Under the pieces are notes generated by a model. It had not been told where the DNA came from and searched no databases. It saw only the letters and a program-made list of their open reading frames with translations. DNA of 42,665 nt from Candidatus Omnitrophota bacterium (GTDB taxonomy: Bacteria; Omnitrophota; Gorgyraeia; Duberdicusellales; 4484-171), in NCBI GenBank assembly GCA_023228195.1, contig JALOBR010000001.1:1-42665 (forward strand). Direction: 5' to 3'. This document shows, piece by piece, positions 261 to 20,287 of the stretch. Positions within the stretch are counted from its first letter, which is position 1. The number at the start of each line of letters is the position of its first letter. The position numbers and the translations under genes were made by a program.

Positions 261-1724
261 ATGTCATATTCTATTAATCCTATTTTAGGTTCAGCGATTT
301 TTCTATGCTTTTTGGTAATTGTTCTTGTGGTTTATATTATAAATAAACTGCAACTTATAAATATCCTCAAAAAAAGCATCGAGCATCTTAACAAAACGGT
401 CCGGGAACTTGATTACCAGGCAAAGCTGATAATCAAGGGTGATATGGAACTAAAGCTCTACCAGGAAGAAGTTGAGGACAAGCTTAACAAACTTACTCTT
501 CTTAAAAATCTCATAATATCTTCACTGCACATTTTGGATAAAGAAAATCTTTTCTCGCAAATAGACGACAAAACCATAAATGACTTGGGCTTTAAAAAAG
601 GCCTGATACTTACAATGGAAGGCGAGACAAAATTGAGTGTCGGTTTTGAACCCAAAGAAGTCGATACCTTAAAAGATTTCGTAAAATATAAAAAGAACTT
701 CATCCAGGCCATACCCTTAATTTCAGCTGAAACCGAAGCGGGTTCAGAATTGATAACTACCCTCCAAACAAAAGATTTTTTAATAGCGCCGATAAAAGCG
801 CGGGAAAAAATATACGCTGTGTTTGTTTTGGCCAATCTTATTATGCCAACCGATGTAAGACGGGCAGAGAAAGAAATTTTCTCAATTATATGTATGTATC
901 TTGGCCAGTGCCTTGACAACATTCAGCTTTTCGAAGAAATCTACAACGCGAAAGATGAACTTGAGAAAAAGGTGAAAGAAAGGACAAATGAACTGGTAAA
1001 AAGCTTACGCGAAATAGAAGCGATAAGCCGGACAAAATCAGATTTCATCTCCAATGTATCGCATGAACTGCGCACTCCGCTTACTTCAGTAAAAGGCTTC
1101 TCCTCTCTTCTGGTTGCTGAAAAATTCGGAAAGCTGCCTGAAGAAGCCAAGAAACGGCTTGAAACAATAGATGAAAACGTTGATAAGCTTGTAAACATGG
1201 TCAATACACTTTTGGATATCGCGCGTATAGAATCGGGGAAAACAGAGGTAAAAATTGCTCCTGCCGATATCGCTAAATTAATCAGAGACACGGGGGAATT
1301 CCTCTCTCCTCAAATGCAGGCAAAATCAATAAAGTTAGTTTTGGATACACCGGAAACACTTTTGGTCTATATGGATAAAAACCTTATTGACCAGGTATTT
1401 ATAAATCTGATAGGAAACGCCGTTAAATTTACGCCTGAAGGGGGCCAGATAAAACTAAGCGTGAAAGCCGGTGGCAGCCAAGCTGTTATCTCAATAGCAG
1501 ATACCGGTTACGGAATAGAACAAGAAAATTTAGAAAAGATTTTTCAGGAATTTTTTAGAGTAGATAATACGATAAATGTTAAAGCCAAAGGAACAGGCTT
1601 AGGGTTATCTCTTGTAAAAAGAATTATCGAAATACACAAAGAAAAAATATGGGTTGAATCGGAAATGGGAAAAGGAAGCACCTTTTATTTTACACTTAAA
1701 TTGGCAAAAGAAAAGACGTTATAG
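261..1724 (+). CDS. Sensor histidine kinase (TM helix, coiled coil, GAF-like region, HisKA, HATPase_c)
   Basis: H-box SHELRTPLTSV. N/G boxes NLIGNAVKFT, DTGYGI, GTGLGLSLVKRI. Hydrophobic N-terminal helix ILGSAIFLCFLVIVLVVYII. Confidence 0.9.
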   Translation: MSYSINPILGSAIFLCFLVIVLVVYIINKLQLINILKKSIEHLNKTVRELDYQAKLIIKGDMELKLYQEEVEDKLNKLTLLKNLIISSLHILDKENLFSQIDDKTINDLGFKKGLILTMEGETKLSVGFEPKEVDTLKDFVKYKKNFIQAIPLISAETEAGSELITTLQTKDFLIAPIKAREKIYAVFVLANLIMPTDVRRAEKEIFSIICMYLGQCLDNIQLFEEIYNAKDELEKKVKERTNELVKSLREIEAISRTKSDFISNVSHELRTPLTSVKGFSSLLVAEKFGKLPEEAKKRLETIDENVDKLVNMVNTLLDIARIESGKTEVKIAPADIAKLIRDTGEFLSPQMQAKSIKLVLDTPETLLVYMDKNLIDQVFINLIGNAVKFTPEGGQIKLSVKAGGSQAVISIADTGYGIEQENLEKIFQEFFRVDNTINVKAKGTGLGLSLVKRIIEIHKEKIWVESEMGKGSTFYFTLKLAKEKTL

Positions 1725-3137: not shown

Positions 3138-3221
3138 GCGCGAGTGGTGAAATGGCATACACTTACGTTTGAGGGGCGTATGGCGAAAGCCGTGTGGGTT
3201 CAAGTCCCACCTCGCGCACCA
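3138..3221 (+). tRNA. tRNA-Leu (anticodon GAG), class II with a long variable arm and encoded CCA
   Basis: Hand-folded cloverleaf. Acceptor GCGCGAG/CTCGCGC. 3-bp D stem GTG/CAC with GG in the loop. Anticodon stem TACGT/GCGTA with loop TTGAGGG (U33, GAG, G37). Variable arm GGC-GAAA-GCC. T arm GTGGG-TTCAAGT-CCCAC. Discriminator A plus CCA. Confidence 0.9.
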
Positions 3222-4375: not shown

Positions 4376-5173
4376 CTAAACCTTTTCGAGCATATTTTTC
4401 GACACACCTATATCCGCAACATATATTTTACCGCAAAGCTTGGGGCCGCTATTTGATAAGAACCCTTTTTTAGGGGCGATAAAGGTGATTGTATAATCTG
4501 CTTTTATCGCTTCTCCCAATATAGCTCCGGAGTCCGGGGACAGCCCTGAAGGGACATCGCATGAGACTATCTTTTTACCGCTTTCATTTATCTCGCTTAT
4601 TATTTTTTTAAGAAAATCCGAAATTCCGCCTTTTGCGCCTATACCCAATATGCCGTCTAAAACAAAATCTGAGGCCTTGAGGTATTTTTTAAGCTTTTTT
4701 ATATTACCAAGGTTAATCGCGCATACAGGGATTTTGATTTTATCCAAAAGTTCTTTCTGGAATTTTACTTCTTCATTAAAATCTTTTTCTTCTGGGGCCC
4801 CACTGAAAAAGCCTGTGAATCCTTTTTTGTTTGCCCCTGTGGAGCGACGTCCCGTTCCTTGATTGCCCACGGGCTGTCCACCAGGACGCCCTGTTGGGCT
4901 GCCGAAGGCGTGCCCATGGAATTCCGGCGAGGGGATTAGAATCACAGCTTTTACGTTGTAATTCTTAGCGGCAAGTTTTCTTGCGCAGGCAAGCGCATCC
5001 GCTCCGTTATTACCCTTGCCTGCCACCACGCATACCTTTTTCCCCAGATTCAAATTATCTATTATGGACGCTAAATTGCTGGAAGCATTTTCTATAAGAA
5101 TTCTTTCGGTAAGGCCAATTTTTTTAGCAGCATGCTCAAGCTTTCTTATTTTTTCTACACTTAAGGCTTTCAT
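4376..5173 (-). CDS. nnrE: NAD(P)H-hydrate epimerase (YjeF N-terminal domain family) with a repeat-encoded insertion
   Basis: VCVVAGKGNNGADALACARKL motif. C-terminal DVPSGL. An extra Gly/Pro-rich segment of about 45 aa (EFHGHAFGSPTGRPGGQPVGNQGTGRRSTGANKKGFTGFFSGAP) is encoded by a GC-rich repeat. Confidence 0.75.
   Translation of the reverse strand: MKALSVEKIRKLEHAAKKIGLTERILIENASSNLASIIDNLNLGKKVCVVAGKGNNGADALACARKLAAKNYNVKAVILIPSPEFHGHAFGSPTGRPGGQPVGNQGTGRRSTGANKKGFTGFFSGAPEEKDFNEEVKFQKELLDKIKIPVCAINLGNIKKLKKYLKASDFVLDGILGIGAKGGISDFLKKIISEINESGKKIVSCDVPSGLSPDSGAILGEAIKADYTITFIAPKKGFLSNSGPKLCGKIYVADIGVSKNMLEKV
4836..4945. repeat. GC-rich palindromic element, copy A (intragenic and in-frame in nnrE)
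   Basis: The 45-nt core CCACGGGCTGTCCACCAGGACGCCCTGTTGGGCTGCCGAAGGCGT (4867-4911) is identical to 9170-9214. The flanks CCCCTGTGGAGCGACGTCCC and GAATCA are also shared with copy B. Confidence 0.85.
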
Positions 5174-6424: not shown

Positions 6425-7669
6425 CTATTTGTTTTTATGCAGATTATCGAGGAATTCTTTTATTTTTTTCTCTTCGCCTATGTCTTTCGGTAAATAATAT
6501 TTATTCCTTGCGCCATAATCCTGCTCAACAAAACCACCGAATGAGTGAGGATATTTATAATCTTTGGAATGCGTTTTTATATTTTTAGGCACCTCTTTGG
6601 TTTCTTCTTCTTCGATGTCCTTTTTAGCGCTATCTATTGCAAGATAAGCTGAATTTGATTTCGGTGAACCAGCGAGATAAATTGTTGCCTGGGCTAAAAT
6701 TAAATCTGATTCCGGCTTACCTATAAATTCAACGGCCTTAAAAGCGCTTGTAGCTAAGACAAGCGCGAAAGGATTTGCGTTGCCGATATCTTCACTGGCT
6801 AAAATTACAATCCGCCTTGCGATAAAACGGGGATCCTCTCCCGATTTAATCATTTTGGCAAGCCAATAAAGAGCGCTGTCAACGTCGCTTCCTCTTACTG
6901 ATTTTATAAATGCGGAAATAGTATCGTAATGATACGAATCTTTTTTATCGTAAAATATATTTTTCTGGATACTTTCACGGGCGATATTTAAATCTAAATT
7001 TATCTTCCCTGATGAGTCTTCCTTGGTGCTAAGAGCCCCTATCTCTAAAGAGCCAAGCGCTTTGCGCGCATCCCCTGCCGATAATACGGCTATGTGTTCG
7101 ATTGCCTCATCACTACAAACAATATTCATATTTCCTAGGCCATTTTCTTTATCAAGCAGGGCGCGCTTAAGAATTGTAATGATATCTTCTTTAGCTAAAG
7201 GCTTGAATTCAGCGACAATGGCACGTGAGATAAGCGATGGTATAAGGTAATAATAAGGATTATATATGGTTGCGCCGATAAGATTTATATTTGCGCTTTC
7301 GGTGTCCGGCACAAGGGACTCCTGCTGCAGCTTATTAAACCGGTGGATTTCATCTATGAATAGAATGGTTTTTCTGCCCTTATCTGCCAATATTTTTTTC
7401 GCATTAAGGATTATCTTTCTGACTTCAACGGAAGAAGTAAAAGAAGCATTCAAATATATAAAATCAGCATCTATACTTTGGGAAACAATAAGGCCAAGTG
7501 TGGTTTTTCCGCATCCGGCAGGCCCGTGGAAAATGAGCGAAGGGAGCCTCTTTGCGATAATCGCGCGCTTTAAGAGCTTCCCTTCTCCTAAAATGTGTTT
7601 CTGGCCGATAAAGTCTTCAAGTGTTTTGGGTCGTAATCGAATTGCAAGAGGCGTATCGCTTTGCAGCAT
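6425..7669 (-). CDS. rarA: Replication-associated recombination protein A (AAA+ ATPase, MgsA/RarA)
   Basis: Walker A GPAGCGKTT, Walker B ILFIDEIHRF, and the conserved C-terminal MgsA domain (DSALYWLAKM, GEDPRFIARR). Confidence 0.9.
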   Translation of the reverse strand: MLQSDTPLAIRLRPKTLEDFIGQKHILGEGKLLKRAIIAKRLPSLIFHGPAGCGKTTLGLIVSQSIDADFIYLNASFTSSVEVRKIILNAKKILADKGRKTILFIDEIHRFNKLQQESLVPDTESANINLIGATIYNPYYYLIPSLISRAIVAEFKPLAKEDIITILKRALLDKENGLGNMNIVCSDEAIEHIAVLSAGDARKALGSLEIGALSTKEDSSGKINLDLNIARESIQKNIFYDKKDSYHYDTISAFIKSVRGSDVDSALYWLAKMIKSGEDPRFIARRIVILASEDIGNANPFALVLATSAFKAVEFIGKPESDLILAQATIYLAGSPKSNSAYLAIDSAKKDIEEEETKEVPKNIKTHSKDYKYPHSFGGFVEQDYGARNKYYLPKDIGEEKKIKEFLDNLHKNK

Positions 7670-7720
7670 GTATTCTCCACGGATTGGTTAATTATTCACG
7701 CTGTGATTTCTCTACGTTTC

Positions 7721-7801
7721 ATTATCCCTTCACTTCGTTCAGGGATAATTCACAGACGGCCTTCGGCCTATGATTTTTTCGTCTACAGACGAAAAAATCA
7801 T
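7721..7801. repeat. Array of three hairpins upstream of rarA, including an ATTATCCC-family hairpin
   Basis: ATTATCCCT(7721)...AGGGATAAT(7749). GGCC-TTCG-GCC. ATGATTTTTTCGTC-TACA-GACGAAAAAATCAT, a 14-bp perfect stem (7770-7801). Confidence 0.8.
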
Positions 7802-8192
7802 CTGTTCATTAAAAAACCCTGCCATAAGTCCGTCTCAGGCTGGTTGCATACAGTCCGTTTCTCATACAAGTGGGTGCTTCATCCTAATCGCCTCAGCGAA
7901 AGGAAATTCAGCTCCCGTGTATTAGGTGTTGGCTGTAGCACTTTAACCTGTTGACGCAACAGGCAGGGTTAATTTCCTTTTCTTACACCTTAGTATAACA
8001 TTCGCGTAGTGTTATTTCAAGGCAATCAGCCAATCTTTGTGAAAACGTTTACACGATTGTAAACATTATGCGTCCGGATAATTACCAGATCCCTTCCTCA
8101 ACCATAAAACAGGCATTTGAAACAATGGAAGGCTTCATTTTCCTTGTGCGAAACGCCTGCGGCAACTCTTGTTTTTTTCTTTATGCCCGGCA

Positions 8193-8975: not shown

Positions 8976-9058
8976 TCGTTTATGTTTAAAAATATTACGC
9001 TGGTTAAGGAAAGAGCCACTCTGGAGCTTCACGGGTAAAACCCGTGGTACTTTGTAAT

Positions 9059-9237
9059 GCACCCCGTGGGGCGACGTCTCCCCAGAAATTTCCTAACCCG
9101 TATGGGAGGAAATTTCGGGGACTTTATCCCGGGAATCCTCCGGATTCCTCGGGACCGCTCCACCATTCGCCACGGGCTGTCCACCAGGACGCCCTGTTGG
9201 GCTGCCGAAGGCGTACCCGTGCTGGCAATGGGAATCA
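9059..9237. repeat. GC-rich palindromic element, copy B (intergenic, longer, with two extra hairpins)
   Basis: The core at 9170-9214 is identical to 4867-4911. Extra hairpins are CCCCAGAAATTTCC...GGAAATTTCGGGG and CCCGGGAATCC-TCC-GGATTCCTCGGG. Confidence 0.85.
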
Positions 9238-10287: not shown

Positions 10288-10455
10288 GTATTTTTTCAAG
10301 CTGCTTGCCCGGGGCAAGCGTGTAGAAAAAATACTAGTGCGAATTATCCCCGAGTGAAACGAGGGGATAATGACAATTCGACCATGTAGTTTTTCCATCC
10401 CCAGGAAAAACTACAGTCTCGTTGGAATTATCCCCGAGTGAAACGAGGGGATATT
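10288..10455. repeat. Intergenic hairpin array with two copies of a 31-nt ATTATCCCC hairpin
   Basis: AGTATTTTTTC...GAAAAAATACT encloses GCTTGCCC-G-GGGCAAGC. GAATTATCCCCGAGTGAAACGAGGGGATA(A/T)T occurs at 10341-10371 and 10425-10455. TGTAGTTTTTCC...GGAAAAACTACA spans 10385-10415. Confidence 0.85.
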
Positions 10456-11011: not shown

Positions 11012-11908
11012 TCAATCTGCATTTTTAATGAAACTTCCGACAACTTCCAGGTAGTCATTTGTTTTTTCAAGATGGTGATTGTGCGAAGCATCTTTAAAAA
11101 CAAAAATTTCTGATTGAGGAATTTTTTTGTGGTAATAATCTGTGGTTTGGGGCGATGCTTCGTCGAATTGCCCGCAGGTAAATAAAGTAGGTATTTTTAT
11201 CCTATTCAGATCATTTATCCTGTCATATTTTTTAAGGATTCCTGTAATTGTAAATTCACTAGGACCCCACATGTATTTATAAATTTCGTAATTCATCTCG
11301 CTGAAAGCTCGCTTTAGGCAATCCGGCCAGGGGGAAAGCCTGCAAACATGGGACTGATAATAATTAATCATTACATCCTGGTATTCTTTGGAATCAAAGT
11401 TTCCTTTTTCTTCAGTTTTAGAAATTATTTCCCGCGCTTTCAAGGGAAACTCTGATAAATAATTTCTTTGATCAAGCCCCCACATTGTCGCTGAAAGACA
11501 GGCCCCTGAAAACACGAGGCTGGCAATACCTTTAGGCATATACTTAATAATATAATCCGTTGCGAGCATCGCCCCCCAGGAATGCCCGAGTATGTGCACA
11601 TTTTTCAAATTGAGCGCGGCGCGCACCTGGCCAAGCTCTTCTACAAAATGTTCTATTGTCCAAAGTGATTTTACGTTTGCTTTATCAGACAATCCACAGC
11701 CAAGCTGGTCGTAAAAAATGACCGGTCGCTCGCTGGACAAAGCTTCCAGCGGCTCAAGATAATAATGCGTAGCCGCCGGACCGCCGTGCAAGATAATGAC
11801 AGGTATTTTATTCTTGTCGGAACCGCAAATTTTATACCATATGTTTCCTCCGGTAACCTTAATATACCCTTCTTGTACGTTGCCGGATTTTTTTATCTCT
11901 TTTTCCAT
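11012..11908 (-). CDS. Proline iminopeptidase-family alpha/beta hydrolase
   Basis: HGGPAATH oxyanion region, nucleophile elbow GHSWGAML, and a C-terminal ASHNHHLE His. Confidence 0.8.
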   Translation of the reverse strand: MEKEIKKSGNVQEGYIKVTGGNIWYKICGSDKNKIPVIILHGGPAATHYYLEPLEALSSERPVIFYDQLGCGLSDKANVKSLWTIEHFVEELGQVRAALNLKNVHILGHSWGAMLATDYIIKYMPKGIASLVFSGACLSATMWGLDQRNYLSEFPLKAREIISKTEEKGNFDSKEYQDVMINYYQSHVCRLSPWPDCLKRAFSEMNYEIYKYMWGPSEFTITGILKKYDRINDLNRIKIPTLFTCGQFDEASPQTTDYYHKKIPQSEIFVFKDASHNHHLEKTNDYLEVVGSFIKNAD

Positions 11909-16329: not shown

Positions 16330-16522
16330 CACAGATGGCCACAGATAATAAATCACAACCCCGTTACCCTAGATAAATATATTAAGGTTCGGGGCGTCCC
16401 GCACCTTAATAATTATATATAGCCCAGCAGGCTGAAAGCCTGGTGAATAGGAAACGGGACAGATGATCGCAGATGAATTTATCTGTGCTCATCCGCTTGC
16501 AAATCTGCGCTAATCTGTGCGC
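16330..16522 (-). mobile_element. MITE-like element, copy X (about 190 bp, CACAGAT-word terminal inverted repeats)
   Basis: The ends are CACAGATGGCCACAGAT and, in reverse complement, GCGCACAGATTAGCGCAGAT. The core 16343-16468 is the reverse complement of 20149-20274 with 2 mismatches counted by eye. Confidence 0.8.
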
Positions 16523-20096: not shown

Positions 20097-20287
20097 GCAC
20101 AGATGGCCACAGATTTAAAAGCGAATAATCGCAGGCGATTCCATCTGTGATCATCTGTTCCGTTTCCTATTCACCAGGCTTTCAGCCTGCTGGGCTATAT
20201 ATAATTATTAAGGTGCGGGACGCCCCGAACCTTAATATATTTATCTAGGATAACGGGGTTGTGATTTATTATCTATGACTATCTGTG
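20097..20287 (+). mobile_element. MITE-like element, copy Y (about 190 bp), inverted relative to copy X
   Basis: GCACAGATGGCCACAGAT ... ATCTATGACTATCTGTG ends. Internal hairpins are CCAGGCT-TTC-AGCCTG and TTAAGGT...ACCTTAA. The core is near-identical to copy X. Confidence 0.8.

Follow-up and report, generated by a model that had tools for sequence, protein, structure and literature searches.

The window analysed here, 42,665 nt of a genome of a Candidatus Omnitrophota bacterium, holds an otherwise ordinary gene for NAD(P)H-hydrate epimerase (nnrE), within which lies a segment of much higher GC content that leaves the reading frame open. The locus raises the question of where this segment came from, how it could enter the gene without breaking it and whether the enzyme carries it as part of its polypeptide chain. 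The answer proposed here, which we hold with good confidence, is that the segment is a copy of a mobile repeat of about 108 nt, with a second module nested in it, that lies in frame in nnrE and is carried by the protein as a tolerated loop.

The host protein belongs to the YjeF_N/NnrE family by profile and by fold: the ORF matches the Pfam profile YjeF_N (PF03853) at 9.5e-40, the match being broken into two stretches, and in the alignment the product retains the invariant GxGNNGxD motif together with the other family-invariant columns. An earlier note, made from the letters of the window, had described a GC-rich segment of about 140 nt inside the gene, and such a segment is indeed present, 144 nt long and with a GC content of 62% against 38.4% in the remainder of nnrE; windows of 100 nt over positions ~4800-4950 reach 58-62% GC, and those on both sides stay at 33-42%. 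The limits given in that note, 4793-4945, have to be moved to 4792-4935, and the inserted peptide (IPSPEFHG...FFSGAP) counts 48 residues, not the 45 that had been assigned to the loop. The insert splits an AAA lysine codon. When the 144 nt are taken out, the gene reads ATT CTA AAA GAA AAA GAT and encodes ILKEKD, as do the empty alleles of the relatives G036 and G038. Translation without stops, as had been claimed, holds for the whole ORF of 265 aa, which includes the peptide that had been quoted. The identity of 45 nt within the insert (4867-4911) with the intergenic positions 9170-9214 is also exact, and the similarity reaches 67 nt at 88% identity; an exact 45-mer repeat within 42.7 kb is not a chance event.

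The extra residues had been expected to be lineage-specific and to map to a surface loop; the first expectation was borne out, and the predicted structure agrees with the second. The names of the nearest homologues assign the organism to the Omnitrophota. Orthologues of about 220 aa lack the 48 residues, the insertion point falling in the alignment between the stretches AVIL and EEKDFN, and in all the 67 other species of the family with an nnrE match the insert is absent and the DNA that matches one half of the protein directly adjoins that matching the other. No homologous loop was found in unrelated nnrE orthologues. In the AlphaFold2 model of the nnrE product the core has block means of 83-97, and residues 1-6 and 83-127 are the only ones with a pLDDT below 50. 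The insert is accordingly predicted to be a disordered loop, in a YjeF_N fold that is otherwise modelled with confidence; the loop sits after strand β2, between strand 73-79 and helix 134-145. The best structural match given by Foldseek is Thermotoga maritima Nnr (2ax3), with mouse AIBP and yeast YNL200c (2dg2 and 1jzt) also among the best. The insert is most likely translated with nnrE as a Gly/Pro/Arg-rich surface loop. One ENA sample (ERZ27247350, loci L003 and L113) contains a filled nnrE allele alongside an empty sister allele, P0003. The protein of this filled allele is 98% identical to that of the window, with 100% identity over the ~300 aligned nt that span the insert, and the empty allele has 86% DNA identity; filled and empty lineages coexist in one metagenome.

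The genome of the window (G000) is a metagenome bin of 159 contigs and 1.475 Mb, with 38.9% GC, 88% completeness and 4.6% contamination. BLAST and iterated nhmmer searches of this genome revealed that the whole insert, and not the 45-nt core alone, is a copy of a dispersed repeat. The nhmmer search gave 21 matches, the nnrE copy being found across the full model at E=1.2e-20, and at least 22 copies are present in G000; the view that the segment is a repeated or mobile element, put forward in the earlier note, is thus strengthened by the existence of a dispersed family. The repeat unit measures ~108 nt (36 codons) and has three hairpins, and the youngest copies, on contigs C141, C138 and C84, are 107-108 nt long with 57-58% GC. 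The unit is made of three palindromic blocks, namely two hairpins of like sequence (CCACGGG..CCCGTGG), one near each end, and a central block that reads CGCCCC..GGGGCGACGTCCC; shortened copies retain both termini. The coordinates of the features in the window and of the copies in coding sequence are collected in Table 1.

Table 1. Features of the nnrE locus, the composite intergenic copy of the window, and further copies in coding sequence on other contigs (C numbers) of the genome G000
Feature	Position	Strand	Description
nnrE (YjeF_N, NAD(P)H-hydrate epimerase)	4376..5173	-	intact ORF of 265 aa, stop-free internally
Repeat insert	4792..4935	-	144 nt = 48 codons; gene-strand sequence TCCCC...CCCCAG
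CTAA (TTAA-like tetranucleotide)	4936..4939	-	on the gene strand, abutting the insert on its 5' side; belongs to the flank and not to the element
Left-end subterminal hairpin	4867..4919		arms CCACGGGC (4867-4874) and GCCCATGG (4912-4919); module B in the loop; 16 nt from the terminus
Module B	4875..4911		nested, 37 nt, TGTCCACCAGGACGCCCTGTTGGGCTGCCGAAGGCGT; stands in place of the 3-nt loop in the subterminal hairpin and adds a net 34 nt
Central conserved block (middle hairpin of the family)	4833..4853		GCCCC..GGAGCGACGTCCC
Right-end subterminal hairpin, decayed	4798..4817		CCCCACTG-AAAAA-GCCTGTG
Composite intergenic copy	9021..9233	-	between two minus-strand genes; module B in the same loop, 9178-9214
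prmC copy	C100:8304-8434		in frame
rlmN copy	C23:~669-766		in frame; orientation opposite to the other intragenic copies
DUF2905 membrane protein gene copy	C5		in frame
lptE signal peptide copy	C141:3799-3911		in frame; young, 108 nt, between MKKI and LIFAFILLCGC
uvrC copy	C141:~7650-7730		in frame; degenerate, 81 nt, between conserved Cys residues
pdxA copy	C97		supplies the final ~36 codons and the stop (C-terminus)

The positions of the three hairpins pair in 78% of cells as against 30-41% when the partners are slid. A covariation test gave no compensatory signal above shuffles in these hairpins, and therefore no selected RNA structure is claimed. Searches of Rfam with both copies, at the gathering thresholds and at E<=10, returned only noise. 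Two other loci of the window reach the Rfam gathering score, a 6S RNA at 7812-7972 on the minus strand (49.2 bits) and a tRNA at 3138-3218 on the plus strand. A covariance model (R1) found 21 matches in G000 and 2-16 in each of six congeners, which places the repeat in 7/7 species of the genus; among the other genomes of the family it was detected in 7 of 67, across five other genera. No such element has been reported from Omnitrophota in the literature, as far as could be found, and to the same extent the repeat constitutes an undescribed family, in-frame palindromic behaviour itself being already known from Rickettsia.

The 45-nt core that is shared with 9170-9214 is not a single unit: its identity stands, and it is composed of 8 nt of hairpin arm and a separate 37-nt module, module B, that is nested in the repeat. 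Module B has about 12 copies in G000, standalone, in tandem or nested, and repeat unit and module B together add exactly 48 codons to nnrE. The composite intergenic copy holds, besides module B, two further hairpin modules at 9080-9120 and 9126-9154, an arrangement which suggests that several small module families nest in one another. The hairpin module at 9126-9154 (ATCCCGGGAATCCTCCGGATTCCTCGGG) recurs on contigs C123, C108 and C60. On contig C97, at 11838-11885, two module-B units lie in direct tandem (ATCCACCAGGATGCCCTGTTGGGCT twice), from which it follows that the module also multiplies on its own. Repeats of other types are present in the window as well. Two 36-nt direct repeats (10334-10369 and 10418-10453), 84 nt apart, each end in the hairpin TATCCCCGAG-TGAAA-CGAGGGGATA and represent another repeat type, and two 191-nt inverted repeats (16330-16520 and 20097-20287), with 89% identity, form a different repeat family.

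The nnrE insert is not an isolated case. Seven of the 22 copies in G000 lie in coding sequence (nnrE, prmC, rlmN, uvrC, lptE, DUF2905 and pdxA), and the relatives are empty at the intragenic insertion sites. The copy count and the intragenic tally that the earlier note had left to be made come in this way to at least 22 and to 7/22, and the parallel it drew with the Rickettsia palindromic elements gains from in-frame copies, absent from relatives, in at least six more genes. The lengths of the intragenic inserts are all multiples of three (144, 108, 129, 99, 81, 81 and 108 nt), and in the young 108-nt copy of C141 three of the six combinations of phase and orientation are stop-free. The insert of prmC is common to G000 and its sister species G036; the G036 copy lacks 39 nt and has 3 extra nt in comparison with that of G000. 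The start of lptE is normal in four congeners (MKKLLIFAF...CGC), whereas in G000 the insert separates the charged MKKI start of the lipoprotein signal peptide from its hydrophobic LIFAFILLCGC stretch; if translated, the lptE insert would make the n-region 36 residues longer and would be removed with the signal peptide. A genome-wide scan for GC-rich islands in ORFs, with 882 matches, was too unspecific and served only to spot the uvrC copy.

Comparison of filled and empty alleles was possible in six cases, those of both nnrE lineages, prmC, rlmN, uvrC and lptE. Set in one orientation, all six inserts fit the form TCYC...CYCCAG, and the target has neither been duplicated nor lost any bases. The lptE gene minus 108 nt, for instance, reads ATGAAAAAAATAT|TAATTTTTGCG and has the same length as its counterpart in G036, ATGAAAAAACTTT|TAATTTTTGCC. 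Immediately 5' of the insert, almost every complete copy has one of the tetranucleotides TTAA, CTAA, TCAA, TTAT and ATAT. This tetranucleotide pre-exists in the empty alleles of uvrC (TTAA), prmC (CTAA/TTAA) and rlmN (TTAT); the empty alleles of nnrE have TTGA or GTGA where both filled alleles have CTAA. Between the hairpins CCACGGG..CCCGTGG and the ends of the element there are 16 nt on the left and 8 nt on the right, and the top strand of the element runs parallel to the neighbouring genes in 17 of the 22 copies, as judged by gene direction in the 159-contig bin. This strand bias could alternatively stem from stop-codon filtering of the intragenic copies or from selection at the RNA level.

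Such junctions bear on the possibility of a classical MITE, bounded by terminal inverted repeats and a TA duplication and moved by an IS630/Tc1-type DDE transposase, in the manner of the Correia and RUP elements. RNAalifold does pair both ends, CTGGAGCCCCACGG with CCGTGG..TTCTGG, and TA...TA or TAAA...TAAA is a permissible reading of several young copies. Duplication of TA (or TAAA) nevertheless leaves the pre-insertion alleles of nnrE, prmC and uvrC one codon short and was rejected, while the model without duplication fits the six filled/empty comparisons exactly, that of lptE included; in the classical MITE test, the missing target duplication counts against membership. The inverted repeat, moreover, is subterminal, imperfect and 15 nt long, the right end having 9 extra nt, and it is there because both hairpins share one sequence. 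A gene with the DDE_3 domain (PF13358) was not found in the 88%-complete G000, and we regard a classical MITE as unlikely. Less probable still is that the loop was recruited for a function, such as a new interaction surface or the regulation of NnrE, and that selection maintains it. It would agree with the persistence of the prmC copy across two species and with the presence of an insert at the same nnrE site in a second lineage, P0002. Yet the two nnrE inserts differ in architecture and are only 77% identical, either filled allele has empty alleles as its nearest relatives, the peptide is of low complexity and predicted to be disordered, and the same peptide frames occur in unrelated proteins, so we give this explanation little weight.

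Two further explanations would deprive the insert of its place in a working protein. According to one of them, the segment is removed after transcription or translation, as an intron, a ribozyme or an intein would be, and the protein never carries the loop. Processing of GC-rich hairpins within an AT-rich mRNA is conceivable, but neither copy has an Rfam match at any threshold, the segment lacks intein motifs and, at 48 aa, is too short for an intein, and intragenic copies occur in both orientations, that of rlmN being opposite. The intragenic copies are, in addition, stop-free multiples of three, and the orthologous copies of prmC have changed by in-frame indels only; if the segment were spliced out there would be no reason for a constraint on the frame. 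Lengths in multiples of three, frame-preserving indels and the use of both orientations within genes are what is expected of translated inserts and not of inserts removed from the RNA, and the 39-nt and 3-nt indels that keep the frame of the shared prmC copy argue, at the level of sequence comparison, for translation. Removal is therefore highly improbable. The other explanation, that of an assembly chimera or a dead gene, derives from the nature of the genome, a fragmented metagenome bin with 4.6% contamination, and is the least credible of all. Insert and flanks are 100% identical in two further assemblies from different projects, so that the insert is no chimera, and nnrE shows no pseudogene signs: the ORF is intact, its predicted fold is confident, and with all the family-invariant residues retained nothing points to a pseudogene.

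We favour instead the reading of the GC-rich segment as selfish mobile DNA that has no genes. The insert would be transcribed and translated with nnrE, and its loop would be tolerated by the enzyme and have no function of its own. Survival in frame would be easy because the unit measures 108 nt, does not duplicate its target and is free of stops in three of six combinations. As to its mobilisation, the element may move as single-stranded DNA through an HUH/Y1 transposase provided in trans, in the 'peel and paste' style of IS200/IS605. Insertion 3' of a TTAA-like tetranucleotide, subterminal hairpins of like sequence at 16 and 8 nt from the ends and the strand bias all point to this mechanism, the likeliest one in our opinion, although we would grant it somewhat less than an even chance. 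The guide/target match expected of such elements is found in two subfamilies, AATT with TTAA and AATA with TTAT, and fails for a third, the TCAT-type copies. The search for the enzyme gave no Y1_Tnp gene (PF01797) in the 88%-complete G000; the ends of the element were present at none of the 17 Y1_Tnp loci inspected in relatives, among them the canonical IS200-like tnpA of G035, and neither was a long parent element found, terminus pattern searches in the genus giving short copies only. With no enzyme found and a guide/target match that is partial, HUH mobilisation is the likeliest mechanism and not a demonstrated one. In this family genes with the Y1_Tnp domain are unusually frequent, being present in 59 of 74 genomes and numbering up to 16 per genome, mostly as ORFs of 200-340 aa.

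The distribution of filled sites adds a further aspect to the behaviour of the repeat. The metagenomic relative P0002 (loci L001 and L002) carries a 108-nt copy without module B whose position in nnrE, orientation and phase are exactly those of the window copy. In a tree built from the insert-free columns each filled nnrE allele clusters with empty alleles (support 100/99), and monophyly of the filled alleles is rejected in an AU test (p=4e-39). The frame is kept differently in the two, by the 34 nt added with module B in the window copy and by a 2-nt deletion in the P0002 copy. Both inserts carry 2 additional nt that are also present in copies C19, C54 and C5, and neither is derivable from the other through in-frame intermediates. 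With a copy from another place the P0002 insert shares 83% identity, as compared with 77% with the window insert; pairwise copy identities did not decide the orthology of the two nnrE inserts. Both filled alleles have a CTA leucine codon, which makes the CTAA flank, where the empty ones have TTG or GTG. A similar situation is found in uvrC, in which G000 and the non-sister G038 (C58:68-153) have 81-nt copies with the same truncated architecture and G036, G037 and G035 are seamlessly empty. Occupancy of the same site may be due to recurrent insertion at a preferred, tolerated site, to seamless excision or to short-patch recombination. One conceivable scenario, towards which we do not yet lean, is that of a reading-frame-neutral element mobilised by HUH/Y1, which by virtue of its 36 codons, the lack of duplication and seamless excision would enter and leave essential genes unbroken at TTAA-like sites. 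Seamless, frame-neutral excision, if true, would explain why the nnrE and uvrC sites are shared while closer relatives are empty.

Repeats inserted in frame in genes are known from the Rickettsia palindromic elements, or RPEs (Ogata et al. 2000; reviewed in PMC10969869). The element described here resembles them in being a palindromic repeat of 100-150 nt in a small AT-rich genome, in encoding, within unrelated housekeeping genes, a recurring peptide that would lie in loops and in having further copies in intergenic regions. It differs in its host, since Omnitrophota are another phylum, and the likeness is one of behaviour, the Rfam searches having shown no sign of a common sequence; given the different phylum, membership in RPE families 1-10 is unlikely. 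Here, in addition, the junctions are readable (no duplication, TTAA-like 5' flank, subterminal hairpins), a second module is nested within the first, and the copy number, ~22, is lower. With regard to the ends, IS608 inserts 3' of TTAC, no DNA being gained or lost, and the distance between hairpin and cleavage site is 19 nt at one end and 10 nt at the other (PMC3201880). IS200/IS605 elements and their gene-less derivatives (PATEs) share with the Omnitrophota repeat insertion 3' of a tetranucleotide with an unchanged target, seamless empty sites, a strand bias, seen here relative to the neighbouring genes, and asymmetric ends with subterminal hairpins of like sequence, the 16/8 nt measured here being comparable to the 19/10 nt of IS608. 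By contrast, no tnpA with the ends of the element was found, guide/target pairing is supported in part, the target is degenerate (TTAA, CTAA, TCAA, TTAT) and the element has just 108 nt and is compatible with coding.

The REP/BIME and REPIN-RAYT systems of proteobacteria consist of short GC-rich imperfect palindromes that are extragenic and have Y1-type presumed mobilisers. The present repeat is likewise built of GC-rich imperfect palindromes that combine into mosaics, and Y1_Tnp genes are abundant in the family. However, 7/22 copies are coding, so that the extragenic location typical of REP sequences does not hold, no RAYT gene with the repeat at its flanks was found, and a 5' tetranucleotide of the GTAG type is missing. 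GC-rich hairpins in AT-rich genomes, also in frame, are formed by the GC clusters of yeast mitochondria and by the double-hairpin elements of fungal mitochondria; these differ in being organellar, of unrelated sequence and of unknown mechanism. Taken together, these comparisons support the view that the element is RPE-like in its consequences and that its anatomy is closest to that of gene-less IS200/IS605 derivatives and REP-type repeats.

Inserts of this kind have consequences for annotation, as they inflate or split domain matches in metagenomes, add false extensions at the N- or C-terminus and may pass for protein innovations of a single lineage. To our knowledge, in-frame 'coding palindromes' have hitherto been regarded mainly as a peculiarity of Rickettsia. 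In the Omnitrophota the genes struck serve repair, rRNA modification, translation termination and outer-membrane assembly, and the clean pairs of filled and empty alleles provide a readable insertion signature, lacking for the Rickettsia elements, that indicates a transposition chemistry which can be put to the test. That an unrelated, uncultivated phylum shows this behaviour too suggests that coding palindromes are a general outcome of small hairpin repeats invading compact AT-rich genomes.
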